From an uncultured Gammaproteobacteria bacterium (GTDB lineage Bacteria > Patescibacteriota > Microgenomatia > Levybacterales > UBA12049): a stretch of 61,807 nt of DNA. Below are positions 16,157-60,116 of this stretch, piece by piece. The notes below the pieces were generated by a model. That model was not told the DNA's origin, ran no database searches, and was given only the letters and a program-made list of their open reading frames with translations. The position numbers and the translations under genes are program-made. The stretch spans positions 1 to 61,807 of the forward strand of contig CAZRWL010000003.1 of the NCBI GenBank assembly GCA_964603935.1, read 5' to 3'. Each line of letters starts with the position of its first letter. Position 1 is the stretch's first letter.

Positions 16157-16159
16157 AAG

Positions 16160-23230: not shown

Positions 23231-23239
23231 AGTTGAAAT

Positions 23240-23563
23240 TTACCTGATTAAACTTCCCGGCGGTATCTCCTTGTCAGGATGAAGAAGCGCTACTCCGTCC
23301 GGTATTCCTGCCGCCAGAATCATCCCCTGGCTTTCAACCCCCATAATAGTTCTTGGCTCAAGGTTAACAACAAACGGACACTCTTTCCCGAGTAAATCTT
23401 CGGGCTTATAAAATTCCGCAATACCCGACACAATTTGCCGTTTATAGTCAGCGAAATCAACTTCCAATTTTAATAACCTGTCTGCTCCTTCAATCTTCTC
23501 CGCGCTCAAAATTTTCCCAATCCTTATCTCTAATTTCTTGAAATCTTCAAAACTTACATTCAT
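23240..23563 (-). CDS. tRNA-binding domain protein (CsaA/EMAPII-like)
   Basis: FEDFKKLEIRIGKILSAEKIEGADRLLKLEVDF is typical of the OB-fold tRNA-binding domain. Confidence 0.8.
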   Translation of the reverse strand: MNVSFEDFKKLEIRIGKILSAEKIEGADRLLKLEVDFADYKRQIVSGIAEFYKPEDLLGKECPFVVNLEPRTIMGVESQGMILAAGIPDGVALLHPDKEIPPGSLIR

Positions 23564-24339
23564 AAATTTTCTTTAAAAAACTTAATAGTTTCCCTATCTG
23601 CTTCTTCTGCGTGCTTGGGATTATCATGAAATCCATGCTCCGCGCCTTTTACAATAACCAGCTTTCCATTCTTAACAAGTTTTGCATATTTAACCGAATC
23701 TTTGTGGGAAATATACGAGTCAGCATCTCCATGAATAAAAAGAATGGGAAGTTCAAGTTTCAATAGTTCTTGCCATGGTTTCAAAGCGCTAATTTCCAGC
23801 ATTAAATTTCTGCCGATTTTGAATTTCCTGCTCCCCACCTCTGTAAATCCGTATTTCTCAATCCTCTCAAACGCCGGCTTTCCCCAATATTTTTTCACCC
23901 ATGGGGTCATAGAGCTTTCACTTGATCCATAATCAATCAGTGAATTCCAAAACACAAGCGCTTTAACAATATCCTGATGTTTTACAGTATAGAAACAGGC
24001 TGCGCCTCCGGCGAAACTTGCCGCAAGGATTCCGAATTTTTTAAATCCTTTTTGCTGCAAAAATTTTACTCCCGCCCCTAAATCTTCTGCTTCTCCTTTA
24101 ATTGTCATGTCTGTTGATCTGCCTTCGCTTTCTCCATGCCCCCGAAAATCAAAACGAAAAACAGCAAAACCCTGCTTCATTAATTGTTTTGCCAAATTAG
24201 TAAATATTCCGTCTTCTTCTTTATCAACAGTTATTCCATGACAAAGAATTATGCATTTCTGCGTTTTTTGTCTTGGAATTGACAAAATGCCACACAACTT
24301 TAATTCATCCGAGGTTTGAAAAAAAACTTTTTTTTCCAT
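23560..24339 (-). CDS. alpha/beta hydrolase
   Basis: HG oxyanion region (ILCHGITV) and C-terminal GAEHGFHD. The nucleophile elbow is atypical (AASFAGG). Confidence 0.6.
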   Translation of the reverse strand: MEKKVFFQTSDELKLCGILSIPRQKTQKCIILCHGITVDKEEDGIFTNLAKQLMKQGFAVFRFDFRGHGESEGRSTDMTIKGEAEDLGAGVKFLQQKGFKKFGILAASFAGGAACFYTVKHQDIVKALVFWNSLIDYGSSESSMTPWVKKYWGKPAFERIEKYGFTEVGSRKFKIGRNLMLEISALKPWQELLKLELPILFIHGDADSYISHKDSVKYAKLVKNGKLVIVKGAEHGFHDNPKHAEEADRETIKFFKENL

Positions 24340-24346
24340 GTGCCAA

Positions 24347-25807
24347 TTATATCAGACAAAATGCGGGATAAGGCTCAAGCCATTTCCGACCATCTTTTTC
24401 TATAAGATCAAAAGCCTCTTTTGGTCCCCAACTCCCTGCTTTATAAAATCTTGTCGGCGTCCTATTCTTAGACAGTGGGTCAATAAATCTCCATTGCGCT
24501 TCAACTTCTTCTGAGGTGTTGAAAAACGTATGTCTCCCGGCAAATACATCCTGCAACAATTTTTCATAGGCGTCAAACGTTTGTCCTGGGAAATGATGCT
24601 TGTAACAGAATTGCATATAGGTTGGCTCAACTTTCAATTCAAGACCGGGTTTTTTTGTAAATAATTTTACTGCGATACCCTCATTTGGTTGCACTCTAAT
24701 AGTAAGCACATTTTTATATTGCTCCTCACCTTTAAAAACATAAGAAATTTCCGTTAACCACATAGCCATCTGTTTACCAGCCCGGATATAGACAGGAATG
24801 TTTTTGAATCTTACATTGTTAACATATGCCTTCATTGCAAAAAAAGTATCTGTTTTGGAATTTTTAGGAACGGACTCTTCATTGCGATATGCAACAGCAT
24901 CTTTCCCATGAACAACTCCAGCATCATACTGCCCATAAACTATGTCTTTAGGATCTGTTGTCAAACTTTTTATTAATTTTAATCTTTCTCCGATCATAGC
25001 CTCATCGCTATCATCTTTCGGTTGTTCCATAGTTGCAATTGCCAACATTTGTAAAATATGATTTTGCCCAACATCTTTCAAAGCTCCTGTCGCATCATAA
25101 AATTTTCCCCTTTTGAAAATGCTAAAATCCTCCGATGAAGTTATTTGGATATGATCAAGGTTTTTCGCATTTAGCATTGGTTCAAAAATACTATTCTTAA
25201 ACCTAAACACTAAAGCATTCTCAAGAGTTTCTTTACCCAAATAGTGATCTAGTCTGAAAATTTGATCTTCGGAAAAAGCAGAAGTAATGATCTTATCTAG
25301 CTTCCTTGCTGAAACTTCATCCTCACCAATTGGTTTTTCAACAATAACACGTGTCCATCCGCACGGACTTTTATCCAAACCGCTTTTCTTCATATTGGTA
25401 AAAATTGTTTGATATAGCGACTGAGGAACTCCTGCGTAAAAAAGCCTATTCCCGCATGGCAATCCTTCAGCAACAAGCTTATCCAGATATTTTGAAAGTC
25501 CTTTGTAAAAATTGGGGTCAGTATTGTCTCCCTGATAGAAATATATATGTTTTTCCAAGCTCTTAAATATATCGTTGTCTACCGAATGCTTGTGGTGACG
25601 ATTGTCTGAAGTCAGAGAGTGTTCAAAGAAATTATAAAATTCTTCTTGCGTATACTTACGCCCTGTGGCGATAATTGCGTAGTCTTGGGGAAGATGTCCT
25701 TTCTCAGCTATATCATAAAGTGCCGGGTATATTTTTTGATAGGAATTGTCACCGCTTCCTCCAAAAATTATTAGCGCAAAAGGACCTCCTTCTTTTGAAT
25801 AAACCAT
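24347..25807 (-). CDS. zwf: glucose-6-phosphate dehydrogenase
   Basis: N-terminal FGGSGDNSYQKIYPAL dinucleotide motif and the active-site signature FRLDHYLGKE. Confidence 0.95.
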   Translation of the reverse strand: MVYSKEGGPFALIIFGGSGDNSYQKIYPALYDIAEKGHLPQDYAIIATGRKYTQEEFYNFFEHSLTSDNRHHKHSVDNDIFKSLEKHIYFYQGDNTDPNFYKGLSKYLDKLVAEGLPCGNRLFYAGVPQSLYQTIFTNMKKSGLDKSPCGWTRVIVEKPIGEDEVSARKLDKIITSAFSEDQIFRLDHYLGKETLENALVFRFKNSIFEPMLNAKNLDHIQITSSEDFSIFKRGKFYDATGALKDVGQNHILQMLAIATMEQPKDDSDEAMIGERLKLIKSLTTDPKDIVYGQYDAGVVHGKDAVAYRNEESVPKNSKTDTFFAMKAYVNNVRFKNIPVYIRAGKQMAMWLTEISYVFKGEEQYKNVLTIRVQPNEGIAVKLFTKKPGLELKVEPTYMQFCYKHHFPGQTFDAYEKLLQDVFAGRHTFFNTSEEVEAQWRFIDPLSKNRTPTRFYKAGSWGPKEAFDLIEKDGRKWLEPYPAFCLI

Positions 25808-43089: not shown

Positions 43090-43806
43090 ATGACTCAAGA
43101 AATTGCAACAAAAATAGCAGTCTTTCAAAAAAAAGAGATACGCAAAATCATCCATAAAAATGAATGGTGGTTTTCAATTATAGATATTATTGAAGCTTTA
43201 ACTGGTACAAAAAGACCAAGAAAATATTGGAATGATCTCAAAAAGAAACTAATAAAAGAGGGTTATTCCGAAGTGTCCGAAAATATCGGACAGTTGAAAA
43301 TAACCGCTCCAGATGGGAAAAAACGAGAAACCGATTGCGCCAACACGGAAACTGTTTTTCGTATAATTCAAACCATCCCGTCATCTAAAGCCGAGCCATT
43401 CAAGCGTTGGTTAGCAAAAGTGGGATATGAGCGAGTGCAAGAAATTGAAGATCCGGAACTTGCAACTAAAAGAACCAAGATGCTCTATAAGCTTAAGGGG
43501 TATTCTGAAAATTGGATAGAAAAACGAATACGTGGAATTGCTATCCGCGAAGAATTGACGGATGAATGGCAAAAACGAGGCGTAAAAGAACAAAAAGAAT
43601 ATGAAATATTAACTGCCGAAATTTCCAAAGCAACCTTCGGCGTGACACCGAGTGAATATAAAAAATTAAAAGGACTGAAGCGGCAGAATTTACGCGACCA
43701 CATGAATGACTTGGAATTAATTTTCAATATGCTCGGTGAGCGAGTAACAACAGAAATCTCTCAGCAAGAAAAACCGGATAAACTATTTGCCAAAATCAGA
43801 AGATAA
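43090..43806 (+). CDS. Bro-N domain / DinD-like (phage antirepressor-type) protein
   Basis: FQKKEIRKIIHKNEWWFSIIDIIEAL... and KAEPFKRWLAKVGYERVQEIEDPE are typical of Bro-N family proteins. Confidence 0.65.
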   Translation: MTQEIATKIAVFQKKEIRKIIHKNEWWFSIIDIIEALTGTKRPRKYWNDLKKKLIKEGYSEVSENIGQLKITAPDGKKRETDCANTETVFRIIQTIPSSKAEPFKRWLAKVGYERVQEIEDPELATKRTKMLYKLKGYSENWIEKRIRGIAIREELTDEWQKRGVKEQKEYEILTAEISKATFGVTPSEYKKLKGLKRQNLRDHMNDLELIFNMLGERVTTEISQQEKPDKLFAKIRR

Positions 43807-43856: not shown

Positions 43857-46800
43857 ATGTTTGCAAGAATCCGAGAAAAAGTAATTGCCCTCAGACAAAA
43901 AATCGCCCTCTCTAATAAAAAACTCATCGGTCTTGTCATAGTCCTTCTTACGGTAATCGCATTGCCTTTAATAGTTATTGCCTCCCAGCAAGAACAGGAT
44001 ATCCGCCAGCACGCCTCCGAACCAACATCTTCGCCTAACTTAACCAATCAACAAGAGGCATCATCTGCGACGACTAAAGATGCCGAACAAATTGAACTAC
44101 TAACTAATCAATTATTCCAATTCAATAAAAAACTAACTGGCGATGTAGGATCTTTATCGGAAGAAGATCAAACAGCGAGAAACAGGGCAACCGCTAATCT
44201 TACAGAAATAGCTAAAAAGCGAAAGGCTTTACTTCTACAAGTTATAGAAGAAGACCCGGAACTCTTTTTGTCTATTGCTTTGAAACAGACTATGCAATCC
44301 TCCATGCCTGCTGCAATTCAAGAATATCTTGAAAAGGAAGTGACTGTTGAAGGGAAAACAGAAGTGCTTCATATTGATGATTTTAAAAATCCCGCTAATT
44401 CCAGATTCAATTATTTTTTGAAGATAGGCAATGAGAAGATTAATTTATTTCCTACTCAAGAACTTCCCATTCCATCCGGGGTTAAAGTCAGAATTAAAGG
44501 CATTCAATTGGATAACAATATCGTTACAACTGCAGATAGCATGTCTTTTCAAGTTTTGGAAGCAGCGCCCAAACCCGAGTCAGTCGGAGATCAGAAAACA
44601 CTGGTACTGCTCATACGATTCAAAGATTCAGGAGATCCTCCTTTCACCAAAGAAAAAGCCCATGATCTTATTTTTAATGGGCAATTCCAGAAATTTTACA
44701 AGGAACAATCATATAATCAAGTTTCTTTCAGCGGAGATGTATTCGGATGGTTTTCTTTAACATACAATAATACTCATCAAGCTTGCGATGTCATTTACAG
44801 CAAGACTATTTCTAACGTCATTGATATTCCCAAACTTGTTGCTGACAACAATATTGAATTGGGAATCTACAGCCGGCTTATTTTTGTGGTTGACACTAAT
44901 TATAGCGGATGCTCTTTTGTTGGAACATTTGAAACAACTATTAATGGTAAAACTTATCGCTTCTCCGAAGCTGCTGTTGGCGCTCATAATTACACTAACC
45001 CCTGGTTCAATCACCCGTTCGAATGGACAGAGCTTGATTTCACTTTAAGTCACGAGTTGGGACATAGTCTTGGAGTGCTACACGCAAATGGCTGGGACTG
45101 TAAGGATCAGACATTATACGGGGACTGCACTCATATAGAATACGGCAATTATTTTGATACCATGGGGATTGGCTCATTTTCGCTTCACTTCAATGCTTTC
45201 TACAAAGAACTGCTTGGCTGGATGAATTCTTCTTCGACTTTACTAATCAGCACTTCCGGCGTGTATACACTTAACCCTTTGGAATTAGATTCGGATAAAA
45301 AATTCGCCAAAATACAGATTCAAAACTCCAATGTTATCCCTTATGATTTGGAATATAGAAAAGGCATAGGCTTTGATGCAAATCTCAATAATGTCACGCT
45401 CTTATCTAACCAATCAGGCTTATTTATTAACCACATAATGACAGACCCTGCATTACCATTAAATTATTCTTATACTCATCTTTTAGATATTACTCCCTCA
45501 TCAAAGTTTTGGGCTGATGATATCGACGACGCTGCATTAAATGGAGAAAAGATTTTTACAGACCCGGGCAGAGGAATAGCGATTGGCCCCATCATAAAAA
45601 CAGACGCATCTTCTATAACTTTTGAAGTTAATCTTGCCATTCCATCTTGTGTTCGTCAGAAACCTTTGGCAAGCACTGTTTATATTTCTAACCCTGTGGT
45701 AGCCGGAGGTTTTGGCACCATAGATATCAAGCTTACGAATGCCGATGGCTTTGGTTGCGGCGAATCAAAATTCCATATAACACCCACCTTACCCTTAGGC
45801 TGGAAAATAATTGACATACATCCTTCCGACAATATCGTTATTGATGCAGACGGAAAATCTTCCATATATATTACTTTTAATCCTCCTGAAAATACTCCGG
45901 TTGGTGATTATTCGTTGAGTTATGATATTGTAAACCTACAGAGCGGTCTTAAAACGCATGCAGAACTTACTACAACAATTAAGCCTGCTCTTAAGATTTC
46001 GAAAATTGATCCGCAAACAGGAAATATTGGCACAGAAATTACAATTTTTGGCTCGGGATTCAGCGAAGACGCAAGCTATAATAAAATCTCTTTTTCTAAT
46101 CCCCAAGGATATGCGATAACCAATTCAAAATTATTTCAATTACCAACTAATGAACAGGTATTAAAATTTACTGTTCCGGAGACAATATGCGCAAGCGGTG
46201 GATTGGGTGCTCCTGGAATACTTGGAGGGGGATGTTCGCCTAAATCAACCCCTTCGGGTACTTACGGAATAAATGTATACAATGACTTTAGTGGCAGTAA
46301 TACTATGAACTTTCAGGTTATTGAACCTCCCACCCCCACCCCGGACTTAACCCCTATCCCCATCAACTGGAAAACTGATTCTGTTTCTCTTCAAGCTGAC
46401 AATTTCTTTATTAAAATGGACAATAGAATATTTAAACCAAACTCTAACTTTAAACTTCATTCAGATTCAGGTAAACCAACCTTCACTACCAGCACTCTAG
46501 AAGCAACGTGGCTTGAGGGAAAAACAGAAATGAGACTTTTTATCTACTTTAGCATTGATGCCAACAATCAATGGAAGGTAACAGAAATGAGAACGTATGA
46601 CGGCAAGACTCCCGGAAATTGGCTATACTATTTAGGAGGAGAGTCAGGCAAACTCGGCGTTCCATTTGCTAACAGCAACTACAGTAAGCAAAGCAAAGAC
46701 GGCAAAGGATATGTTAATTTTGGAAAAATAAAATTAGAGCCCTTCTTAAATCTTGTCACTCCCACCCCAACTCCTAAGCCAACGGCTACTCCTACACTCA

Positions 46801-47153
46801 AACCTACACCAACACCCACCCCTATTCCCGTAAAAACAGTTAGCGTTTTAAATAAAGGAAGTTTTCCATTGTCAATTATAAATGTCTCTGATTCCAGCAT
46901 TAACTTCACATGGAGAGATATTGGCACAGCTTACAAATATACTGTTGAATATTTCTATGGAGCTGCCAATATAAAATATAGTGTAAATAATACTCTTTCT
47001 TTATCTCCTGTTACCGCTCCTCCCGTTAATAGGCAGTATAAAAGTACGGTTAATTTGAGCACAAAACAAAGTATGCATATGCGAATGAAAGCTTGCAGAG
47101 GAATAAACGCTAATTGTTCATTTTCGGATGAACTTTTTATCACTACTAAATAG
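43857..47153 (+). CDS. large secreted/anchored metzincin-like zinc metalloprotease with IPT/TIG and Pro/Thr linkers
   Basis: N-terminal signal anchor, HELGHSLGVLHA (HExxHxxGxxH), an IPT/TIG-like segment KISKIDPQTGNIGTEITIFGSGF, and TPTPTPKPTATPTLKPTPTPTP linkers. Confidence 0.7.
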   Translation: MFARIREKVIALRQKIALSNKKLIGLVIVLLTVIALPLIVIASQQEQDIRQHASEPTSSPNLTNQQEASSATTKDAEQIELLTNQLFQFNKKLTGDVGSLSEEDQTARNRATANLTEIAKKRKALLLQVIEEDPELFLSIALKQTMQSSMPAAIQEYLEKEVTVEGKTEVLHIDDFKNPANSRFNYFLKIGNEKINLFPTQELPIPSGVKVRIKGIQLDNNIVTTADSMSFQVLEAAPKPESVGDQKTLVLLIRFKDSGDPPFTKEKAHDLIFNGQFQKFYKEQSYNQVSFSGDVFGWFSLTYNNTHQACDVIYSKTISNVIDIPKLVADNNIELGIYSRLIFVVDTNYSGCSFVGTFETTINGKTYRFSEAAVGAHNYTNPWFNHPFEWTELDFTLSHELGHSLGVLHANGWDCKDQTLYGDCTHIEYGNYFDTMGIGSFSLHFNAFYKELLGWMNSSSTLLISTSGVYTLNPLELDSDKKFAKIQIQNSNVIPYDLEYRKGIGFDANLNNVTLLSNQSGLFINHIMTDPALPLNYSYTHLLDITPSSKFWADDIDDAALNGEKIFTDPGRGIAIGPIIKTDASSITFEVNLAIPSCVRQKPLASTVYISNPVVAGGFGTIDIKLTNADGFGCGESKFHITPTLPLGWKIIDIHPSDNIVIDADGKSSIYITFNPPENTPVGDYSLSYDIVNLQSGLKTHAELTTTIKPALKISKIDPQTGNIGTEITIFGSGFSEDASYNKISFSNPQGYAITNSKLFQLPTNEQVLKFTVPETICASGGLGAPGILGGGCSPKSTPSGTYGINVYNDFSGSNTMNFQVIEPPTPTPDLTPIPINWKTDSVSLQADNFFIKMDNRIFKPNSNFKLHSDSGKPTFTTSTLEATWLEGKTEMRLFIYFSIDANNQWKVTEMRTYDGKTPGNWLYYLGGESGKLGVPFANSNYSKQSKDGKGYVNFGKIKLEPFLNLVTPTPTPKPTATPTLKPTPTPTPIPVKTVSVLNKGSFPLSIINVSDSSINFTWRDIGTAYKYTVEYFYGAANIKYSVNNTLSLSPVTAPPVNRQYKSTVNLSTKQSMHMRMKACRGINANCSFSDELFITTK

Positions 47154-48767: not shown

Positions 48768-49316
48768 GTGAATCCAATCACTTACATGTTATCATTTTAT
48801 TATAAAATTGCGAGCACCAAACCCACACTTATATCCCTTGATTCCTTGAGGACTCAAGAGGATTTGGCAATTATCAAGAAAAATCTTAGCGAAAAAGTCA
48901 AAAAAATATTTAAAGGATCGTTGGCGATTAGAGAAGTTGATGCCGGCTCTACAAATGCTTGCGAGCAGGAACTAAATGCGTTAACCAATACTTTTTATGA
49001 CATTGAGCGGTTCGGAATTCATTTTGTCGCATCCCCAAGACATGCTGACATGCTTATAGTTACGGGACCTGTTACCAGAAACATGGAATATGCTTTGAAA
49101 AAAACCTATGAAGCAACGCCGGACCCAAAGATTGTTCTTGCTTTGGGAAACGACGCGATTGACGGCGGAATATTTAAAGGGTCTTACGCTGTTTTAGATG
49201 GAGTTCACAACGTAATACCGGTTGATTTTCAAATACCCGGAGATCCCCCAACAGCCAAAAACATATTGCGCTCACTCTTGCGAATTTTGGAAATTATAGA
49301 AAAAAATAAAAGTTAG
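48768..49316 (+). CDS. NuoB/HycG-like small subunit lacking the canonical 4Fe-4S cysteines
   Basis: ERFGIHFVASPRHADMLIVTGPVT is diagnostic of the NuoB/hydrogenase small-subunit family. The expected CxxC, GxC and GCPP appear here as AGST, GND and GDPP. Confidence 0.8.
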   Translation: MNPITYMLSFYYKIASTKPTLISLDSLRTQEDLAIIKKNLSEKVKKIFKGSLAIREVDAGSTNACEQELNALTNTFYDIERFGIHFVASPRHADMLIVTGPVTRNMEYALKKTYEATPDPKIVLALGNDAIDGGIFKGSYAVLDGVHNVIPVDFQIPGDPPTAKNILRSLLRILEIIEKNKS

Positions 49317-49324
49317 TTATTGTT

Positions 49325-51358
49325 ATGCTCTACGTATTTATTTTGCTGTTAAGTATTTTTTTTGCGGGCGCGCTGGGGTCGCTTCTTCTTCAGAAAAAAG
49401 AAAATCATGCGCATCTTTTTGCCGGTGTTTTTGCAATCACAGGATCACTAGCGGGAATCCTATTTTCTTTTTCCCTGCTTTTTACTCAAGGTAAATTCTC
49501 AGCAACAATTCCCACCTCTTTCCCTCTTTTAAAAATTTCCTTAAATATAGATTCTCTTTCAGCGCTTTTCATTTTAATAATTTCTACTGTTGCGCTTTGC
49601 TCCTCTATCTATGGGCTATCTTACATGAAACATTATTATCAAAAATATAACGTTGGCTTATTCGGCTTTTTTTATAACCTTTTTATCCTAAGCATGATTT
49701 TGGTTGCAACCGCAAACAACGGCCTTTATTTTCTATTTGTCTGGGAACTGATGTCTTTAGCTTCGTTTTTTTTGGTTATTTTCGAACATGATCGCAATGA
49801 GACAATACGAAGCGGTATTATTTATTTCATTATGGCTCACATCGGGACTGCTTTTATTCTTCTGGCATTTTTAATGCTTTATATTTCTACAGGCTCTTTT
49901 GAGTTTTTGGCAATTAAAAAAGCTTCAGGATCCATGCCTTTGCTCATTAAAAACGTTGTTTTCATACTAATGCTTCTGGGTTTCGGGACAAAAGCCGGAA
50001 TAATTCCGCTGCACATTTGGCTGCCCAAAGCTCATTCCGCTGCCCCTTCCCAAGTGTCATCCCTCATGTCCGGCGTGATGATAAAAATGGGAATTTTTAT
50101 GATGATAAGATTTTTTGTGGATATTTTTACACAAGCTCCGTTGTGGTGGGGTTTGACCATGCTTATAATAGGCGCTATTTCATCTGTTCTGGGAGTACTT
50201 TATGCTCTTTCAGAACACGACATAAAACGTCTTTTGGCATACCACAGCATTGAGAATGTAGGAATTATTTTACTGGGAGTCGGAGCGGGAATTACTTTTG
50301 CCTCTCTTGGTCTCTACTCATTTGGGGCGCTGGCAATTTTGGCCGGATTGTTCCATACGATAAACCATGCTATTTTCAAATCGCTTTTGTTTTTCGCGGC
50401 AGGATCCGTAATCAATCAAACGCATACCAGAAACATTGAAGAATATGGAGGCCTGATAAAACTCATGCCTTATACCGCTGTCTTTTTCCTGATCGGAAGT
50501 ATCGCAATTTCAGGGCTGCCTCCTTTCAATGGTTTCGTAAGCGAGTGGTTAACTTTCCAGGCTCTTTTTGCCGGCATTGGCTCAACTGTAGTTATTATCA
50601 AAAGTGTTTTTATTTTTGCCGCTGTCTGCCTTGCTCTAACAGGAGGACTTGCGGCTGCCTGTTTTGTCAAAGCCTTCGGTACGGCTTTTCTGGCCAGACC
50701 AAGAAGCAAAGAAGCAGAAAAAGCAAAAGAATCCGAATTCAGCCTTTTGTCCGCAATGGCTATTCTCGCATCGCTTTGCCTTGCCCTTGGAGTCCTCTCA
50801 AGCTTTTTTATTCCAATACTTACGAGGGTTTCACAAAGTCTTGGAAATTTTTCCTCAAAATCAACAGCCATCTCAACCAATTTAATATCTATCAGCGTTA
50901 ATAATAATTTCGGTCTTCTGAATATGCAGGCCGTATTGGGGGGATTATTACTGGCGCTTATTCTTGTTTTTATCGTTATTTATACATTCACAGGGAAACA
51001 AAAGATCAAATTTTCAGAAACCTGGGCCTGCGGTTTTTATTCTATAAATCCAAAAGCGGAAATCACTTCTACCGGTTTCTCCAGATCTCTTATTCTTATA
51101 TTTAGAGGCATCTTCCAACCGACAAAACAAAGTACTATGGACTATGTTGACGCGGATATCCGCTATTTTACAAAATCCAAAACTATCACCTTAACAACTG
51201 CAAATCTATACGAAAAATATATATATTATCCGGCCCAACGGATATTATTTTCTTTATCAAGACAGGTAAAGAAAATCCAAAGCGGGAACATTAATCAATA
51301 CCTGCTGTACATTTTCATAACGCTCATAGCCCTTCTTGTTTGGGCAAGATTTTTTTAA
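49325..51358 (+). CDS. HyfB/HycC/NuoL-like antiporter-type membrane subunit
   Basis: 677 aa and multi-TM. The pattern GTKAGIIPLHIWLPKAHSAAPSQVSSLMSGVMIK is typical of proton-conducting NuoL/M/N subunits. Confidence 0.85.
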   Translation: MLYVFILLLSIFFAGALGSLLLQKKENHAHLFAGVFAITGSLAGILFSFSLLFTQGKFSATIPTSFPLLKISLNIDSLSALFILIISTVALCSSIYGLSYMKHYYQKYNVGLFGFFYNLFILSMILVATANNGLYFLFVWELMSLASFFLVIFEHDRNETIRSGIIYFIMAHIGTAFILLAFLMLYISTGSFEFLAIKKASGSMPLLIKNVVFILMLLGFGTKAGIIPLHIWLPKAHSAAPSQVSSLMSGVMIKMGIFMMIRFFVDIFTQAPLWWGLTMLIIGAISSVLGVLYALSEHDIKRLLAYHSIENVGIILLGVGAGITFASLGLYSFGALAILAGLFHTINHAIFKSLLFFAAGSVINQTHTRNIEEYGGLIKLMPYTAVFFLIGSIAISGLPPFNGFVSEWLTFQALFAGIGSTVVIIKSVFIFAAVCLALTGGLAAACFVKAFGTAFLARPRSKEAEKAKESEFSLLSAMAILASLCLALGVLSSFFIPILTRVSQSLGNFSSKSTAISTNLISISVNNNFGLLNMQAVLGGLLLALILVFIVIYTFTGKQKIKFSETWACGFYSINPKAEITSTGFSRSLILIFRGIFQPTKQSTMDYVDADIRYFTKSKTITLTTANLYEKYIYYPAQRILFSLSRQVKKIQSGNINQYLLYIFITLIALLVWARFF

Positions 51359-51361
51359 AAT

Positions 51362-52288
51362 ATGGTATTGTTATTTTTACTTAAATTATTTTTAATCCCG
51401 ATGCTTTCCCCTCTTTGCGTGGGAATTATAAGAAAAGTAAAAGCGATAATGCAGAACAGGAAAGGCGCATCCATAATGCAGCCGTATTTTGATTTATATA
51501 AACTCTTTCATAAGGATGAGGTTATTTCCAAAAACGCATCATGGATTTTCCGCTTTGCTCCTTATCTTATATTTGCCATAAGCATACTAATACCTCTTGG
51601 AATTCCCCTGATAGCAAGCGCCGAATCAATCTCGCCTATTAGCGATTTCATAGTTATTGTTTATTTGCTTGCTCTTTCAACTTTTTTCTTAAGCCTAAGC
51701 GGAATAGATGTCGGGAGCGCTTTTGGAGGATTCGGGTCAAGCAGGGAAATGACACTTTCCGCTCTTACCGAAGGCGTGCTTATGTTTTCTATGATCCCAA
51801 TTGCGCTTATAGCCCAAACAACCAACTTAACCATGATGGCCGCTACAGCATCTTCTCTGCCTCTAAATGATTTCTTCCCAATCTCCATTGCTTTTGTAGG
51901 ATTTTTTATTGCGATGCTCTCTGAAACAGGACGAATTCCTTTTGATAATCCCGCGACTCATTTGGAACTGACAATGATCCATGAGGCAATGATCTTGGAG
52001 CATTCAGGCAAGCGTTTGGCTCTTATCGAATGGGCGTCAGCCAACAAACTTCTGATTTTTGCAGCCTTAGGTATAAACATGTTCTTTCCCTGGGGAATAG
52101 CTCATGACTTGACTTTGGATAAAATCGCAGTTTCCTTATTTTTTTTCCTTGTGAAGCTCTTGATTCTTATCGCCGCTATAGCCTTTATGGAGTCTAGCAC
52201 TGCGAAATTCAGACTCTTCAGACTGCCTGATGTTTTGTTAACAGGATTGATATTTGGCATAATCGCCATAATCACAACAATTATTTAA
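51362..52288 (+). CDS. HyfC/HycD/NuoH-like membrane subunit
   Basis: The pattern ETGRIPFDNPATHLELTMIHEAMILEHSG is characteristic of HycD/NuoH. Confidence 0.85.
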   Translation: MVLLFLLKLFLIPMLSPLCVGIIRKVKAIMQNRKGASIMQPYFDLYKLFHKDEVISKNASWIFRFAPYLIFAISILIPLGIPLIASAESISPISDFIVIVYLLALSTFFLSLSGIDVGSAFGGFGSSREMTLSALTEGVLMFSMIPIALIAQTTNLTMMAATASSLPLNDFFPISIAFVGFFIAMLSETGRIPFDNPATHLELTMIHEAMILEHSGKRLALIEWASANKLLIFAALGINMFFPWGIAHDLTLDKIAVSLFFFLVKLLILIAAIAFMESSTAKFRLFRLPDVLLTGLIFGIIAIITTII

Positions 52289-52289
52289 T

Positions 52290-52949
52290 ATGGAAATCTT
52301 AAATATGCAAACCGTATTTGTTTTCGAAGCAATCATTTTCGTATCAGCGGTTCTGATGCATGTTGTCAAAAGAAATTCTACGATAATTATTATTTATCTC
52401 TGCCAGTCACTAGCCCTGGTCGGACTTTTAGGCATTCACGCTTACCAGGAACAATCTACCGGCTCTTTCCTGATTGCATTAATTGTTCTTGTGATCAAAG
52501 TTCTAATTGCGCCAAGATTTTTCCTAAGACTGATTAATCGCAGCCACCAGAATCTTTCCGCTTCTACCTACATCAATGTCCCCATGACATTGGGTGTAAT
52601 AATCGGATTAATTTTCTTCGCTCAATCAGACATTTTCTCCCCCTTTAACAAGCTCCTGGGAGAAATGCCTGCACTGCGTATGATGCTTATATCTGCTATT
52701 TTCATATCTTTATTCCTTACGATCAACAGAAAAGGAGTTTTATCTCAAATTATAGGAGTTCTGTCTTTGGAGAATAGCATTGTGGCATTCGGATTTTTCG
52801 TAGGATTACGCCAGCCTTTTAACCTTGAACTGGGAATACTTTTCGATATTCTGATTTTGGTCATAGTTTCAACGGTTTTCGTATCAATGGTCTACAGACA
52901 ATTTGATTCTTACGATGTAACTCGCATGAAGCATCTTAAAGAGGAATAA
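52290..52949 (+). CDS. HyfE-like small membrane subunit
   Basis: 219 aa and multi-TM, with a LSLENSIVAFG motif resembling HyfE. Its position in the operon matches hyf order. Confidence 0.65.
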   Translation: MEILNMQTVFVFEAIIFVSAVLMHVVKRNSTIIIIYLCQSLALVGLLGIHAYQEQSTGSFLIALIVLVIKVLIAPRFFLRLINRSHQNLSASTYINVPMTLGVIIGLIFFAQSDIFSPFNKLLGEMPALRMMLISAIFISLFLTINRKGVLSQIIGVLSLENSIVAFGFFVGLRQPFNLELGILFDILILVIVSTVFVSMVYRQFDSYDVTRMKHLKEE

Positions 52950-52953
52950 TTTT

Positions 52954-54411
52954 ATGATACTATCTTTAGTTATTTTAGTGCCGTTGGCAGCTTCCATCCT
53001 TTCGCTTCTTGTAGCAAAAAGAGCGAAAAATTTATACAGAATAGCTGCTGCTGCCTCTTTCATTGAGCTTGCGGCTTCTTCAGCCGTAACTTATTCAATC
53101 GCAGTGAATAATTCTCCTTTCTCATGGACGCCTTATTTCTCGGTTGATTTCTTGGGAGCAATTTTGCTGATGTTGGTTGCAATCGTGGGACTTGCAACAT
53201 CAATATATTCTATCGGATACTTTAAAGCCGAAGTAGATAAAAAAATTATCGGCTTTCACAGAGTGAGAGAATATTTCATACTTTTGCATTTATTTTTAAT
53301 GGCAATGTTTTTTGCGATAACCACAACAAGCCCGGTTCTGATGTGGATTGCCATTGAAGCTACAACTCTCTCAACAGCCTTCCTCATAAGTTTTTATAAT
53401 AAGCCATCTGCCATGGAAGCGGCATGGAAATATCTGATTATCAATTCTATCGGACTTTTAATAGGATTCCTGGGCACATTGCTCTTTTTATCTATTGTTT
53501 CCCACCCCTATCCTATAAATTTAATAGACTGGAGCGCATTGGCAAAAAATGCTTCCAATGCAAATCCCCTTATAGTTAAAATTGCTTTTGTTCTTGTATT
53601 GATCGGGTACGGAACAAAAGTCGGGCTTGCGCCCATGCACACATGGCTGCCGGATGCCCACAGCAAAGCACCTGTACCTTTAAGCAGTCTTCTTTCCGGA
53701 GTCTTATTAAATGTTGCTTTCCTTGCAATCATACGTTTCAAAATAGTTACCGACTTGTCCGTAGGAGCTAACTTCTCACAAGGACTTCTGATATTCTTTG
53801 GAATTTTGTCTATCGTAATCGCCTCCCTTATTATTCTTATGCAGAAAAATTATAAGAGGCTTTTGGCGTACTCAAGCATTGAACATATGGGAATTATTGC
53901 TTTGGGATTTGGATTTGGAGGCATTGGAATTTTCGCGGCATTATTGCACATGGTATACCACTCGCTCGCAAAATCCATGCTGTTTTTAGCCTCAGGAAAT
54001 ATTTTCCTGAAATATAGTACCACTAGAATATCAAGCACAAAAGGAGCGATCTTCGTTCTCCCCGTTACGGGAGTTCTGTTCCTTGCCGGATTTTTGGCTA
54101 TAACAGGAATTCCGCCCTTTGGCACGTTTCTGACCGAGATATACATTGTTTCGGCCGGACTCAAAAATCATCCTGTCATTGTAATCACTGCTATTATCGC
54201 GCTTACTCTTGCTTTCGTAGGTTTTCTAAGAAGCGTTTTCTCTATGGCTTATGGCGAACCCGGAGAAATTACAAAAGGAGAGAAAAGCAAATGGACTACT
54301 CTTCCTCTGATTGCTATATTTATTATCTTGCTTGCATTAAGCTTATATTTGCCTGACTTCATAAAAGTCTTCATACAAAATGCCAGCGCTTTGATTTCTA
54401 AAACCATATGA
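52954..54411 (+). CDS. HyfF/NuoN/M-like antiporter-type membrane subunit
   Basis: GTKVGLAPMHTWLPDAHSKAPVPLSSLLSGVLLN. Confidence 0.85.
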   Translation: MILSLVILVPLAASILSLLVAKRAKNLYRIAAAASFIELAASSAVTYSIAVNNSPFSWTPYFSVDFLGAILLMLVAIVGLATSIYSIGYFKAEVDKKIIGFHRVREYFILLHLFLMAMFFAITTTSPVLMWIAIEATTLSTAFLISFYNKPSAMEAAWKYLIINSIGLLIGFLGTLLFLSIVSHPYPINLIDWSALAKNASNANPLIVKIAFVLVLIGYGTKVGLAPMHTWLPDAHSKAPVPLSSLLSGVLLNVAFLAIIRFKIVTDLSVGANFSQGLLIFFGILSIVIASLIILMQKNYKRLLAYSSIEHMGIIALGFGFGGIGIFAALLHMVYHSLAKSMLFLASGNIFLKYSTTRISSTKGAIFVLPVTGVLFLAGFLAITGIPPFGTFLTEIYIVSAGLKNHPVIVITAIIALTLAFVGFLRSVFSMAYGEPGEITKGEKSKWTTLPLIAIFIILLALSLYLPDFIKVFIQNASALISKTI

Positions 54412-55979
54412 AAGCATCAGAAATAATAAAACAATATATTCCGGAAGTAAAAAATGCCAAAACAGAGGGCAATTTGCTTCTTTTTGAGGTAACTGCATCA
54501 GAATTGGCAGCTAAATATTCTGAACTGTATGTAACGAATAAACTGCCTTTAAAAACTATAAAAGCAACTGACGAAAGAAAAAAAGACGGGTGCTTTAGAA
54601 TTTATTACATTTTCGGCGTGCCTTCGGAAAATATATTTATAGCCCCCTATTTGAGCCTGAAGGATACTGCCTCTTTCCCGTCAATTGTCCCGACAATTCA
54701 TGAAGCAACCCGCTATGAGCTGGAAATAAAATCATTTTTCGGTCTTGATCCGGCAGGACATCCCCAATCAGGCGAACAATTTATCCTGCAGGAAAACTGG
54801 CCATTAGATGCATTTCCTTTGCGTAAAGATTTTCTCTGGGACAAAAGGCCGCCGACGGCTCACAATCCCTATCATTTTCAGGAAGTTGAGGGAGAGGGAA
54901 TTTACGAAATACCGGTTGGGCCTGTTCATGCCGGAATAATTGAGCCAGGTCATTTTAGATTCAGCGTTGCAGGAGAAGAAATTGTTTCCCTTGAACCGCA
55001 GCTGGGATATACCCATAAAGGAAGCGAAAAATTATTTGAAATACTGCCTTTGGAAGACAAAATCAGACTTTCAGAAAGAATTTCCGGCGATAGCTCATTT
55101 GCTCATTCTCTGGCTTTCTGCATGGCCATGGAAAGCTTAAGCGATATAAAGACTTCTGCCCGCGCGGATTATCTAAGACTTATATTTGCCGAACTGGAGC
55201 GAATTGCCAATCACTTTGGCGATATTGGTTTCATTATGAATGACACGGGTTTTGCTTTCGGAGGAAGCAACGGAACAAGACTTCGCGAGTATATCATGCA
55301 ATGGAATGAAAAACTTACAGGAAGCAGATTTTTGCGCGGCGTTAACACAATTGGCACAGTTACCAAAGACATTTCAAGCTCCGACAAAAAAGAATTAACA
55401 GATTCCCTTGGAAAAATAGAAAAAGATTTTTCTGAAGTAATTAGTATCGCGGAAGATAACGAATCTTTAATTAACCGCCTCAAAGGAACCGGAACTCTAA
55501 ATCTGCAGGCAGGCTTGGATCATGGAATAACCGGCATAGCGGCGAAAGCACTGGGAATTCAATCTGATGCCAGAATAAATCATCCATACGGCGCTTACAA
55601 AGATCTTCCTCTCCATATCTCAACCGAGCAATCAGGAGATGTTTATAGTCGGTATCGCGTGAGAGTTAAAGAGGTAAATTCGTCAATTGCTCTTCTTAAA
55701 AAAGCTTTGGAAAAACTCCCTGAAAGCAATCTTGAAAACGGAAAGAATATCAAACTTAGGAAAAATTCCTACGCAGTCAGCGTTGCTGAAGGATGGCGCG
55801 GAGATATTGTTTATTTTGTAAAAACAGATGAAAAAGGAAATATTGAAAGAGTCGGAATCAGGGACTGCTCATTTCTAAATTGGGCTGCTCTGCCTCATGC
55901 AGTTTTGGGAAATATAATCCCCGATTTCCCATTAATTAACAAAAGCTTCAACCTCTCCTACTCCGGCAATGATAGGTAA
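54408..55979 (+). CDS. HycE/HyfG-like NuoC-NuoD fusion large subunit lacking the NiFe cysteines
   Basis: GPVHAGIIEPGHFRFSVAGEEIVSLEPQLGYTHKGSEK is diagnostic. The expected RxCGxC appears as ERISGDSS, and the C-terminal DPCxxCxxR appears as NLSYSGNDR. Confidence 0.85.
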   Translation: MKASEIIKQYIPEVKNAKTEGNLLLFEVTASELAAKYSELYVTNKLPLKTIKATDERKKDGCFRIYYIFGVPSENIFIAPYLSLKDTASFPSIVPTIHEATRYELEIKSFFGLDPAGHPQSGEQFILQENWPLDAFPLRKDFLWDKRPPTAHNPYHFQEVEGEGIYEIPVGPVHAGIIEPGHFRFSVAGEEIVSLEPQLGYTHKGSEKLFEILPLEDKIRLSERISGDSSFAHSLAFCMAMESLSDIKTSARADYLRLIFAELERIANHFGDIGFIMNDTGFAFGGSNGTRLREYIMQWNEKLTGSRFLRGVNTIGTVTKDISSSDKKELTDSLGKIEKDFSEVISIAEDNESLINRLKGTGTLNLQAGLDHGITGIAAKALGIQSDARINHPYGAYKDLPLHISTEQSGDVYSRYRVRVKEVNSSIALLKKALEKLPESNLENGKNIKLRKNSYAVSVAEGWRGDIVYFVKTDEKGNIERVGIRDCSFLNWAALPHAVLGNIIPDFPLINKSFNLSYSGNDR

Positions 55980-56083: not shown

Positions 56084-56932
56084 TTAAACCTTCAGTTTAA
56101 ACTTGTAAACCACTTTTCCCATTGCTTCAGCTCTGACTGTTTCTCCTTTAATTCTTACCCATATTCTGTAGGTAATAAATTCGTTGGGAACTCTGTATCT
56201 TTTTCCAAAAAGAGATATTGAAGAATCACGATAGACGAGTCTCCTAATGGTAATCGTCAGAAGTTCTTGGAGCTCCTGTTTAGGTTTTCTCTTTTCACAT
56301 GGAAGGTAAGCCTCAGCAGGAGTCCTTCCATTCATTCCAATGCCACTATGCTTAAACTCCTCATTAAACTTAATCTGCCATTTAAAGAATCTTCTATTTA
56401 GTTCTTCAAAGGATTTAACGTCAAGATTTTCTCTGGCAAAATCTTGTTGAACAAATCTCCAGAATTTTTCAATCTTACCTTTAGTCTGCACTCTATGAGT
56501 AAAAATCAGGTCAATTCCTAAAGCTTTTGCATAAAACCGGAAGGTTGACTGAGCATATTCACCCGTCTGAGTGTACCTTGCGTTTGCTTTGTATTGCGAG
56601 CCCTTGTCTTGAAGCATTTTCTTGGATAATCCCCATTGAAATAGACAGTGATACCAGACTCGAAAGACATTCATTTGTGTTTGTTGGGAAAACCATTTTC
56701 CCCCAAGGATAAACCTTGAATGGTCATCAATAGTTGCAACCAAATATGCATCACCCAAAAAGGGGAAATATAATTTTCCCTGAATATCTGACTGCCATAA
56801 ATCATTTGGGTAAGGCGCGACAAAACGGGTAATTGGCTTCAATCTCTCAACGTTTAGTTGATTTAAACCATACTCAACCCAGACCTGCTGAATTCTCCTT
56901 ATGGAAATGGCGGAAATGCTGGCCAATCTCAA
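56084..56932 (-). pseudogene. transposase DDE (rve) catalytic part
   Basis: Candidate DDE triad in WQSDI, DDHSR/QDKGSQY and KGKIEKFWRF. It lies in the +1 frame relative to the HTH part. Confidence 0.65.
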
Positions 56933-57200
56933 GAACTTTTCTAGCTGATCTCCAGTTGCCTTTTTTCTTTAATTTCAGCACCTCTGAAAGCTGTCTGGGA
57001 GTTAATTTGCGGTTGTTACTATGTCTCAAATCCCTTAGGGCATCCAATCCGCTTCTTGTAACTTTATTTAGGTAACGATAAATGGTTAATCTTTTACAAC
57101 CTAGTATACCTGCCGCTTCTTTACTGGCAATTTTGCCTTTTAAAAGTTTCCCTATTGTTTCCTTTTTAAATTCTAAACTTTGTCTTTTCAATTTTCTCAC
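56874..57200 (-). pseudogene. transposase N-terminal HTH part (split from the catalytic part)
   Basis: The HTH region ASKEAAGILGCKRLTIYRYL. The reading frame ends inside the overlap with the DDE ORF. Confidence 0.6.
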
Positions 57201-58220: not shown

Positions 58221-58272
58221 TTACAATTAGCTTGACAATTAGCTTGACAATTCCCTGAAATATAGCTATAAT
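58221..58272 (+). promoter_or_regulatory. three tandem 12-bp units (ttgacaattagc-like), the last forming TTGACA-17-TATAAT for fic
   Basis: Sequence ttacaattagc ttgacaattagc ttgacaattccc ... tataat. The -10 lies at 58267-58272, 7 nt before ATG 58280. Confidence 0.55.
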
Positions 58273-58279
58273 GATGTTC

Positions 58280-59293
58280 ATGCATAGACCTACCTACACT
58301 ATTACCCCAAAACTCTTAAGCGCTGTAAGCGAAATAGAACGTTTGTACGGAAGACTGGAAGGAATGAAGGCGCCTCAAAGTCTGCTTCTTAATCTTGAGC
58401 GGGATAATCTTATCGAGTCCTCATATGCTTCCAATAGTATCGAGGGGAATTCTCTTTCTCAACCAGCCGTTACCAATCTACTGTTAAATGACAGAGTTCC
58501 GACCAACCGTGACGAAAAAGAAGTTGTCAATTATTTTCAGACTCTTAAGACTCTTGAAAAACGACTGAAGGAGCCCATAACTGTAACGGAGATTTTAAGT
58601 ATCCATGCTCAACTAATGTCCGGTATAGATGACAAAAATAAAGGACAAATAAGGAATGAAGAAATCATCGTGGGCAACCGTGACGCACAGGGAGAGTTTT
58701 TGATAAGACACAATCCTCCTTTTCACGATAGGGCAACTATTGAAAAAGCATTACGAGAATTAACAAGTTGGCTAGGAGTGAGCAAGGAACTTCCTATTCT
58801 TAAAGCCGGAATATTCCATCATCAATTTGTCTATATCCATCCTTTTGTCGATGGAAATGGTAGAACATGTCGCTTGACTACTGCTCTCATCTTTTTAAAA
58901 CATAATTACCTGATTAATAAATACTTTGTCCTGGATGATTACTATGACATTGATAGAAATAGCTATTCAGATAATCTACATTCCGCTGACAACGGAAATC
59001 AAACACAATGGCTTGAGTATTTCGCAGAGGGAGTAAAATTTTCTCTACAGAGCGCTCTTGGTCGTATTGAAGCTGGAATGAATCAACTCTCTTTTGGCAT
59101 GCGTCCCAGTCCACGAGAGACTGATGCATTAAAAATAATACAAAAATACCGACAAATGAATACAGCAGATTTGGTAAGAGAATTGAAAATTACCAGACAG
59201 CAAGCCTTCAATCTATTAAAAGCATTGACTGAAAAAGGATTTATAGAGAAGAAAGGAAGCACGAAAGATAGTTACTATATTCTAAAAGACTAA
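58280..59293 (+). CDS. Fic family protein (class II, with N-terminal inhibitory motif)
   Basis: Active site HPFVDGNGRTCR, inhibitory helix motif SNSIEG (SxxxEG), and a C-terminal wHTH. The start is set at ATG 58280 because 58271 overlaps the -10. Confidence 0.9.
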   Translation: MHRPTYTITPKLLSAVSEIERLYGRLEGMKAPQSLLLNLERDNLIESSYASNSIEGNSLSQPAVTNLLLNDRVPTNRDEKEVVNYFQTLKTLEKRLKEPITVTEILSIHAQLMSGIDDKNKGQIRNEEIIVGNRDAQGEFLIRHNPPFHDRATIEKALRELTSWLGVSKELPILKAGIFHHQFVYIHPFVDGNGRTCRLTTALIFLKHNYLINKYFVLDDYYDIDRNSYSDNLHSADNGNQTQWLEYFAEGVKFSLQSALGRIEAGMNQLSFGMRPSPRETDALKIIQKYRQMNTADLVRELKITRQQAFNLLKALTEKGFIEKKGSTKDSYYILKD

Positions 59294-59424: not shown

Positions 59425-59835
59425 TTATAAGTCGGAGGCGAGTTTGAAGCCGAGTTTTTGATACCAAGTGTCAAAAGAAAATATTGTCTGCGCATTAAGT
59501 TTTTTGGCAGTAGCTGCAACAAGCGCGTCAAAAAAAGTATTCTTCTTGGAGCCTTTAGGATTATAGATTTCCGCAGCCTCTTGCATTATATACTCATCAA
59601 CATATTCCACCTCGAATAATCCTTTTTTATAGTGTTGGACTAATAAATCTGCAACAGTAGGATTTGCTAATTTTCGATGCAGCGTCGTAATTGCCTCTGC
59701 TATAGCAGTATTAGGAAAAATAACAGTGTGTCCCTCCGAATATAAATACTTGCTAATTTTCGATGCTTCTTCATAATGACTGTCTTCTTCCAGAAATAAA
59801 GCAATTAACACATCGGCATCGCCAATAATAATCAT
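59425..59835 (-). CDS. vapC: PIN domain toxin (VapC-like)
   Basis: MIIIGDADVLIA... (first acidic residue) and FFDALVAATA..., downstream of an RHH gene. Confidence 0.8.
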   Translation of the reverse strand: MIIIGDADVLIALFLEEDSHYEEASKISKYLYSEGHTVIFPNTAIAEAITTLHRKLANPTVADLLVQHYKKGLFEVEYVDEYIMQEAAEIYNPKGSKKNTFFDALVAATAKKLNAQTIFSFDTWYQKLGFKLASDL

Positions 59836-59840: not shown

Positions 59841-60116
59841 TTACACTCTAGCGTTAGGGTTTCTTTTCTTACCGCCCCATGTATAATAATCATGGTTTTC
59901 AGATAAATCTCTTGGACCCTTTATATGAAGTTTTTTTGCCAAATTTGCAATATCAATAAGCGCCCTCGCAGAAGAAGATTTTTTGGGCTCGACTATTTTT
60001 AAGCCCGCTTCCAAAATGTTTCGGGTAACTTCCGCCTTGCTTTTGCCTCTCAAACGGGCCAAATAAGCGATTTCCCTATTCATTTCTTCGGGTAAATAAA
60101 TATGTGTTCTTTGCAT
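59841..60116 (-). CDS. vapB: ribbon-helix-helix antitoxin (VapB/CopG-like)
   Basis: RTHIYLPEEMNREIAYLARLRGKSKAEVTRNILE has an RHH pattern. Confidence 0.7.
   Translation of the reverse strand: MQRTHIYLPEEMNREIAYLARLRGKSKAEVTRNILEAGLKIVEPKKSSSARALIDIANLAKKLHIKGPRDLSENHDYYTWGGKKRNPNARV

Follow-up and report, generated by a model that had tools for sequence, protein, structure and literature searches.

An Ehr complex in a CPR bacterium with seven of the eight metal ligands of its hydrogenase ancestors replaced

What could drive a membrane complex of hydrogenase descent once its metal ligands are gone? The question is raised by a locus on contig CAZRWL010000003.1 (assembly GCA_964603935.1), of which a stretch of 61,807 nucleotides, referred to here as the window, was analyzed. 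Six intact open reading frames (ORFs) occupy positions 48768-55979 of its + strand with intergenic gaps of -4 to +8 bases and are apparently translationally coupled. A previous reading of the sequence alone had described them as a six-gene complex of the Hyf/Ech type in which all canonical NiFe and FeS ligands are substituted and the ferredoxin subunit is absent.

Family of the operon and its former metal sites

The family of each subunit was called with Pfam and NCBIfam, and the ligand columns were read from HMMER alignments to solved structures. The six family assignments and the gene order given by the sequence-only reading were confirmed (Table 1). The best matches among solved structures were HycG, HycC and HycE of Escherichia coli formate hydrogenlyase (6.5e-29 for the small subunit against the Hyc structure 7z0s), followed by the Pyrococcus membrane-bound hydrogenase MBH and then by complex I. 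The operon very likely encodes an energy-converting/Ech hydrogenase-related (Ehr) complex of the type found in the candidate phyla radiation (CPR), ordered EhrS-A-B-C-D-L and descended from group 4 membrane-bound [NiFe] hydrogenases. Its subunits are named here as in Geobacter, namely EhrA (NuoL-like), EhrB, EhrC (HyfE-like), EhrD, EhrL and EhrS (PMC7894505). PF00361 was found in both EhrA and EhrD, and both proteins matched the MrpA/MrpD structures 6z16 and 7qru. Ehr complexes were first named in Geobacter sulfurreducens and have also been described in Nitrospira, ammonia-oxidising archaea, Margulisbacteria, for which an association with formate dehydrogenase (FDH-Ehr) has been proposed, and others. 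The earlier family placement was thus correct, but it was missed that the operon belongs to the already named Ehr family (EhrABCDLS), with a CPR clade described in 2020.

E. coli hydrogenase 4 and formate hydrogenlyase (HyfBCEFGI; Hyc, 7z0s) are the closest structural relatives for the large, small and HyfB-like subunits, and NCBIfam names Hyf B, E and F for this operon. Those enzymes have a NiFe site and a proximal cluster, the ferredoxins HycF/HyfH and HyfA, formate dehydrogenase as a partner, and maturation by hyp/hycI; no counterpart of these features was found here.

Residue-level alignment of EhrL with E. coli HycE (7z0s_E) placed RISGDSSFAHS on RVCGICGFAHS and NLSYSGNDR on DPCYSCTDR, so that all four cysteines that ligate NiFe in group 4 hydrogenases are replaced (S226, S229, S517 and G520). 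EhrL ends at the Arg of the C-terminal L2 motif, with no extension for proteolytic maturation. At least 8000 large-subunit homologues from a database search were scored; both [RK][IVL]SGD[ST]SF.H and NLSY[ST]G.D. were present in all of the 120 closest (57-74% identity), and the NiFe cysteines were missing in 155/163 related large subunits. In the accessible parts of a survey of CPR genomes, Ehr large subunits are described as monophyletic, without metal-binding cysteines and such that they "likely cannot interact with H2", with Fig. S6b covering the L1/L2 motifs of the large subunit only (Jaffe et al., 2020, BMC Biol 18:69, PMC7304191). The clade of the window is almost certainly the CPR Ehr clade of that study, as far as those parts describe it. 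No mention of the small-subunit ligands, the missing ferredoxin module or a linkage to ATP synthase was found in the same parts. Three points seem not to have been described before, namely the loss of the small-subunit cluster, the pattern of conservation across the subunits and the linkage to ATP synthase genes, although the cluster loss may be mentioned in Coppi (2005) or Marreiros et al. (2013).

The small subunit was aligned with HycG, MbhJ and the complex I subunit PSST. VDAGSTNACE fell on VDCGGCNGCE, SGSCNGCD or ..CCAVE, GNDA on G(A/S)C, and GDPP on GCPP. T62 and C65 lie on the hydrogenase CxxC (A64-C65 on the CC of complex I), D129 on the Cys of GxC, and D159 on the Cys of GCPP. The proximal (N2-type) cluster has therefore lost three of its four cysteine ligands, and EhrS lacks the full set of four for one [4Fe-4S] that is usual in Ehr small subunits. 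The second Cys of the CxxC/CC motif, C65, is retained, so that seven metal ligands of eight are lost; the earlier claim of complete substitution was right for all four NiFe and three FeS ligands but not for this residue.

These substitutions recur in close relatives. Among the 120 closest small subunits (67-86% identity), position 62 is T in 112 and S in 8, position 65 is C in 102 and E in 18, position 129 is D in 114 and G in 6, and position 159 is D in 117 and N in 3; 11 of these proteins contain no Cys whatever. When 50%-identity representatives were considered, about 17 of the best 150 small-subunit clusters lacked the cysteines. In the wider clade of operons without the cluster ligands, called cluster-less below, the four positions hold T/D/S/N, C/E/A/V, D/G/E/A and D/N/S, respectively. 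The residues replacing the cluster ligands are nearly always oxygen donors, with T/S/D, C/E, D/E/G and D/N at the four positions in turn, a pattern that hints at a cation site or a hydrogen-bond network filling the void of the cluster. A fixed substitute metal site in EhrS was considered and rejected, since the four positions vary across the wider clade and leave only a hint of one. As a separate observation, Gly129 occurs among the 120 closest proteins (P0271-P0390) solely together with Glu65 (6/6); a more distant clade member, L008, combines Cys65 with Gly129. Outside the ligand columns, positions that are at least 90% conserved in either the cluster-less or the cluster-bearing small subunits mostly have the same consensus in the other group, often at lower frequency.

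Other redox centers were searched for in the operon and the window. The six Ehr proteins contain 11 Cys in 2394 residues and not one CxxC pair. No ferredoxin-type CxxCxxCxxxC ORF was present in the 61.8-kb window, save one out-of-frame chance match inside an M50 peptidase gene, and no ferredoxin-like ORF or Cys-rich N-terminal extension was found in the loci of the cluster-less clade. No hyp genes turned up among the window ORFs scanned. The operon has neither the full proximal-cluster ligand set and the HycF/NuoI-type 2x[4Fe-4S] subunit or domain of group 4 [NiFe] hydrogenases nor the NuoA, NuoI, NuoJ, NuoE, NuoF and NuoG genes of complex I (Nuo/NDH-1); three of the four N2 ligands and the quinone-binding Tyr of complex I are replaced as well. 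The ferredoxin subunit is absent, as claimed, from operon, clade and window scans alike, and its absence is common to many ordinary Ehr operons. About half of the EhrS proteins encoded last in their operons (S-last) carry a Cys-rich ferredoxin-like N-terminal extension, in agreement with the literature on Ehr small subunits; such an extension is missing from most of those encoded first (S-first) and from every cluster-less one. It was accordingly ruled out that Ehr complexes in general lack a ferredoxin module. With the ligand alignments, the missing CxxC and the missing ferredoxin in hand, the earlier view that no obvious redox cofactor is left was upheld, and the complex probably holds no Fe-S or NiFe cofactor.

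It is quite unlikely that the complex is still a redox enzyme, using a non-canonical cofactor (a cluster or a mononuclear iron on C65 plus Asp/Thr) or an unlinked partner that feeds electrons to an acceptor. Asp-ligated [4Fe-4S] clusters occur in other proteins, and the frequent retention of C65 beside mostly Thr/Ser/Asp/Asn at positions 62, 129 and 159 would suit such a site, as would one locus (L169) lying back-to-back with a hydrogenase cluster. However, Glu65 and the Cys-free homologues, the variability of the four positions in the wider clade, which leaves no fixed ligand set, and the absence of CxxC from all six subunits argue against it, and a hydrogenase neighbor is found at just 1 of about 23 loci. 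Furthermore, G227 of EhrL aligns, in an approximate loop alignment, with the quinone-binding Tyr87 of Thermus thermophilus Nqo4, the NuoD counterpart. Complex I and Pyrococcus Mbx/MBS share with the present complex the NuoB-NuoCD-NuoH-antiporter module, and NuoD and MbsL have likewise lost the NiFe cysteines. Those complexes keep N2/proximal and NuoI-type clusters and reduce quinone or polysulfide, whereas the present complex lacks three of its four cluster ligands and, with G227 in its place, the equivalent of the quinone Tyr.

Cluster-less relatives, conserved residues and ATP synthase genes

Related loci were collected from species-representative genomes and metagenomes (163 loci) and by exact look-up (six more), their six genes were located, and the ligand columns were scored. 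A contig search with a single large-subunit protein gave no confirmed relative, and a search with an alignment recovered the related loci. Nearly all 163 contain the same six genes in the order S-A-B-C-D-L or A-B-C-D-L-S. All four small-subunit cysteines are kept in 113 of the 133 other paired Ehr operons; three or four are lost in 19-20 Ehr operons, every one of them ordered S-A-B-C-D-L. The large subunits of the latter belong either to the clade of the window or to a divergent trio (L046, L076 and L115). In neighbor-joining trees the main cluster-less clade and the trio were each recovered in 60/60 bootstraps and their union in merely 20/60, so the cluster may have been lost once or twice, and the trees do not establish that the cluster-less operons share one origin. 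The clade of the window joined Cys-bearing (CCCC) large subunits in 0/60 bootstraps, in a tree with few outgroups and without the HydDB reference set. The survey data show a reduction series from hydrogenase, through Ehr with a ferredoxin domain and a proximal cluster and Ehr with a proximal cluster alone, to cluster-less Ehr.

Ordinary Ehr complexes resemble those of the cluster-less clade in their six subunits, in a NuoCD-like large subunit without NiFe cysteines, in the pocket motif SGD[ST]S ... NLSYSG.D and in the beta1-beta2 loop. They differ in mostly keeping the four small-subunit cysteines and, in about half of the S-last operons, a fused ferredoxin-like domain, whereas the clade of the window has neither, is S-first and is tied to ATP synthase genes.

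The related loci span 29 to 57% G+C. Sources of the homologues include Levy-, Roizman-, Wildermuth-, Magasanik-, Howlett-, Davies- and Falkowbacteria, Paceibacterota and Saccharimonadales, and a Saccharibacteria metagenome-assembled genome (MAG; L008) carries the operon. Members of the cluster-less clade were also seen outside CPR labels, in L164 (a 2.79-Mb contig, beside acyl-CoA dehydrogenase and nitroreductase genes), L081 (866 kb), L002, L006, L007, L009 and L010; MAG labels in this set include Firestonebacteria, Fibrobacteria, Thermoleophilia, Endomicrobiales and Bdellovibrionales. Either lateral transfer past the CPR or mislabelled bins would account for them.

Three further variants were observed in the survey. 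A Chloroflexota MAG (L080, 8330-12334; also P0178) encodes a large subunit with four NiFe cysteines together with a small subunit whose proximal positions read E, C, E and D and whose N terminus carries a fused 2x ferredoxin domain; the enzyme would be hydrogenase-like but apparently lack a canonical proximal cluster. At its first ligand motif, the Ehr small subunit of a Rokuibacteriota MAG (L039, 4397-4906) has a tandem Cys-Cys as in complex I where hydrogenases have CxxC. Two complete Ehr operons stand in tandem on the same strand in L040, L070, L126 and L149 (Nitrospirota and others).

Conservation was then compared between the membrane arm and the peripheral cap formed by EhrS and EhrL. 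In EhrA, E141, K223, H230, K254, K352 and E407 are present in all aligned members (19-20/20, the single miss being an alignment gap). In EhrB, R128, E129, E188, D195, E202 and E208 are found in 21/21 clade members and R191 and E223 in 20/21, and E213 in 19/21, the remaining two having Asp. EhrD keeps K222, H229 and K340 in 24/24 and E135 in 23/24 (again an alignment gap), and E161 of EhrC is invariant. Thus no charged ion-path residue checked falls below 19 of 20-24 clade members, except position 395 of EhrD in transmembrane helix (TM) 12, which alternates between E and K; the polar residues N253 of EhrD and E180 of EhrC vary, the latter being Gln in 14/20. Across the main clade, identity to the window averages 0.60 for S, 0.58 for L, 0.55 for B, 0.53 for D, 0.52 for A and 0.40 for C. 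As S and L are the highest of the six subunits, the cap is not vestigial.

These data exclude decay. The loss of seven ligands out of eight and the insertion sequence (IS) element directly downstream in the window could suggest a non-functional remnant of a hydrogenase operon, but the six closely spaced, apparently coupled ORFs are intact, the large-subunit homologues are numerous, and the same substitutions recur across lineages of widely differing G+C content, with the ion-path residues conserved. With the substitutions fixed in 120/120 close large and 120/120 close small subunits, this explanation was rejected and has practically no chance of being correct.

The sole recurrent neighbor of the cluster-less loci is a set of F-type ATP synthase genes; the flanks otherwise differ from locus to locus, and no other conserved flanking gene was found at these loci. 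The genes atpG-atpD-atpC immediately precede the operon, on its own strand, in L001, L011, L076, L090 (26-bp gap) and L115 (64-bp gap). In L165 (1-17443), the full atpB-E-F-H-A-G-D-C set is followed head-to-tail by ehrSABCDL on the same strand, in L091 (9254-13734) the atp genes come after the ehr operon, and in L003 they are nearby. Among loci with at least 6 kb of flank, atp genes were present at 7/20 cluster-less loci compared with 0/75 other Ehr or hydrogenase loci (Fisher p = 7e-6). A Gln/Ser-Thr signature is the criterion for Na+ at the ion sites of c rings. The c subunits of L165 and L091 do not have it, and the adjacent c rings therefore look H+-coupled. As a single observation among about 23 loci, L169 (Paceibacterota) has its cluster-less ehr operon back-to-back with a group 3b NiFe hydrogenase cluster (4715-9288 versus 10001-17243) that encodes ferredoxin-like, NAD-binding, small and large subunits and HypA.

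This gene order raises the possibility that the complex serves the F1Fo ATP synthase, or some other envelope machine, as a regulator, a sensor or an assembly/anchoring partner and that it conducts ions solely as a signal. The repeated joining of the operon to the end of the atp operon (to its start in L091) and a conserved cap without catalytic cofactor would fit this role. It is nevertheless improbable: two full antiporter-like subunits and a NuoH-like channel with nearly all pumping residues kept would be costly for a sensor, 13/20 flanked loci are not beside atp genes, and Ehr complexes outside the CPR conserve the same membrane arm.

Possible energy sources and functions of the complex

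The best overall explanation, held with about even confidence, is that the complex is a redox-free, gradient-driven cation/proton transporter that shares the proton circuit of the ATPase. An antiporter-type mechanism is proposed tentatively. Without a redox cofactor, electron transfer could not drive the complex, which would instead use an ion gradient for secondary cation/proton transport and so be comparable in function to an Mrp antiporter or a gradient converter. The proton circuit would be common to the Ehr complex and the often co-encoded H+-type F1Fo ATPase: in a cell that lives by fermentation, the proton gradient would be built up by the ATPase and then spent or converted by the Ehr complex. 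The NuoB/NuoCD cap would then be a gate or regulator of the NuoH-like channel and not a catalytic site. Gradient-driven transport is regarded as the likeliest function because an ion gradient is the only evident energy source in the absence of a redox centre and because the pumping residues are intact. The earlier suggestion of a machine that translocates ions or acts as a sensor, and that electron transfer does not drive, would be consistent with the kept ion-path residues and with the neighboring ATP synthase genes.

The Mrp antiporter, which is driven by an ion gradient, is proposed as the working analogy for cluster-less Ehr. It shares MrpA/MrpD-type subunits with a TM5 Glu, a TM7 Lys, a TM8 Lys and a TM12 Glu/Lys, a NuoK-like subunit, and the absence of a redox cofactor. 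It differs in that no MrpB, MrpE, MrpF or MrpG gene or Pfam match is present in the operon and that a NuoH-like subunit and a NuoB/NuoCD cap are foreign to Mrp; the cluster-less Ehr complex is not a member of the Mrp family.

Several points weigh against gradient-driven transport. The linkage to ATP synthase genes is confounded by taxonomy and small genome size, and there are no atp genes among the ORFs scanned in the window itself. Mrp-like antiport is an analogy and not a homology-based prediction, since the presumed Na+-path subunits of Mrp and MBH (MrpB/E/F/G-like) are absent. The cap is the most conserved part of the complex, which would not be expected of a mere plug or gate. With C65 kept in 85% of close homologues and oxygen donors around it, a metal site other than a cluster may be present in EhrS. 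S226, D228, H233, S517, Y518 and D522 of the EhrL pocket are kept in 115-130 of 131 other Ehr, including cluster-bearing ones, and such a preserved pocket hints at a specific ligand or reaction, which it would fit better than a passive plug. In papers of 2023-2025 on Nitrospira and ammonia-oxidising archaea, moreover, Ehr function is stated to be unknown, and no Ehr complex has been characterized experimentally.

In another explanation, the complex is a conformational machine. The proton gradient made by the ATPase would power non-redox chemistry, or would cause a ligand to be bound, released or transported, at the polar pocket that replaces the NiFe site; in effect, complex I would run "backwards" with no electrons involved. 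The hydration of CO2 by CupA on NDH-1MS, or by DabAB, is comparable in principle. Besides the linkage to the ATP synthase operon and the conservation of S and L, this explanation can call on the pocket residues S226, G227, D228, H233, S517, Y518 and D522, each kept in at least 23/24 clade sequences, of which D228, like N515, is specific to Ehr relative to Cys-bearing relatives. It can also call on the beta1-beta2 loop VGP[VI]HAGIIEPGHFRF, every position of which is found in at least 23/24 cluster-less sequences; this loop is also near-invariant in cluster-bearing Ehr and in Cys-bearing relatives. However, no candidate substrate is known and no accessory enzyme gene is conserved beside the operon, and the identical pocket occurs in cluster-bearing Ehr. 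As it is present in complexes still holding the cluster, the pocket is not an adaptation to cofactor loss. A conformational machine of this kind is considered unlikely.

A broader proposal, which we regard as possible but doubtful, is that the coupling module of cap, NuoH channel and antiporter-like pumps can work entirely without redox chemistry. In the cluster-less clade, the former cluster site would have turned into a cation or proton site with the oxygen ligands Thr/Asp/Asp (with or without Cys/Glu). This site and the polar pocket would couple the ATPase-made proton gradient to a non-redox task, either an exchange of cations by way of the cavity that once held the substrate or a reaction or transport process powered by the gradient. 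If this were true, every Ehr complex would at its core work independently of redox chemistry, and the one cluster that ordinary Ehr complexes keep would be either expendable or a regulatory element.

Gene layout, host and meaning for the Ehr family

The coordinates of the ehr genes, of the former ligand codons and of other features of the window are collected in Table 1. The database gene call for ehrS starts at M7 (ATG 48786) and gives 176 aa, the length of the close homologue P0271 as well. Scans for promoters and terminators gave background level only.

Table 1. Positions in the window of the ehr genes, the former metal-ligand codons and other features
Feature	Position	Strand	Description and evidence
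ehrS	48768..49316	+	NuoB/HycG-like small subunit; 182 aa from GTG; PF01058 3e-25; HMMER alignments to 7z0s_G, 6cfw_J and complex I PSST
ehrA	49325..51358	+	HyfB/HycC/NuoL-like antiporter-like subunit; 677 aa; NF005086 691 bits (cut-off 667); 7z0s_C 5e-78; MbhH 5e-63
ehrB	51362..52288	+	HyfC/HycD/NuoH-like, joins peripheral arm to membrane arm; 308 aa; PF00146 3e-44
ehrC	52290..52949	+	HyfE-like small membrane subunit, NuoK-like C-terminal half; 219 aa; NF008556 3.7e-15 and PF00420 8e-4, both under cut-off
ehrD	52954..54411	+	HyfF/NuoN/NuoM-like antiporter-like subunit; 485 aa; NF005044 1.5e-131
ehrL	54408..55979	+	NuoC-NuoD fusion, HycE-like large subunit; 523 aa; PF00329 and PF00346; 7z0s_E 2e-67
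Former [4Fe-4S] ligand positions in EhrS	T62 48951-48953; C65 48960-48962; D129 49152-49154; D159 49242-49244	+	Structure alignments
Former NiFe ligands in EhrL	S226 55083-55085; S229 55092-55094; S517 55956-55958; G520 55965-55967	+	HycE alignment
IS-type element	56084-57200	-	rve integrase-core transposase (282 aa) and upstream helix-turn-helix (HTH) ORF (108 aa)
Fic/DOC protein	58271-59293		Fused to MarR-type HTH
PIN-domain toxin	59425-59835
Small ORF upstream of the PIN-domain gene	59841-60116		No Pfam match; probably the antitoxin
Bro-N domain protein	43090-43806
HExxH protein	43857-47153	+	1098 aa; N-terminal hydrophobic segment; HExxH motif (LSHELGHSLG); TIG domain
GSDH-family gene	5661-6791		Glucose/sorbosone dehydrogenase of the pyrroloquinoline quinone (PQQ) type
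G6PD and 6-phosphogluconate dehydrogenase genes	21445-25807		Oxidative pentose phosphate branch

All named top matches of the ribosomal protein S2 encoded in the window are from Candidatus Levybacteria (75-89% identity), which places the host among the CPR (Patescibacteria), in line with the organism type supposed from the sequence alone. The other window ORFs scanned are housekeeping genes, such as those for tRNA synthetases, SHMT, ThyA, G6PD/6PGD and PRPP synthetase; G6PD and 6-phosphogluconate dehydrogenase are here part of a Levybacteria-like genome. The IS-type element directly 3' of the operon is in keeping with reports that Ehr genes are patchily distributed among CPR bacteria and spread by lateral transfer. 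The HExxH protein, encoded just upstream of a FolC/Mur-ligase-like gene, is probably a secreted or surface metalloprotease-like protein.

Ehr complexes are widespread, occurring in Nitrospira, ammonia-oxidising archaea, Acidobacteria, Firmicutes and the CPR, and tend to be depicted as ion pumps that run on redox chemistry and whose partner has yet to be found. A large, strongly conserved cluster-less clade with a constrained cap and ion path is a natural experiment, which would point either to a redox-free mode of complex-I-type machinery or to Ehr never having been redox enzymes. CPR bacteria ferment and mostly have no electron transport chains; in such cells, the cluster-less Ehr complex points to a partner of the ATP synthase that may maintain or convert the membrane ion gradient. 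A cofactor-free natural variant makes the long-standing question of Ehr function testable.

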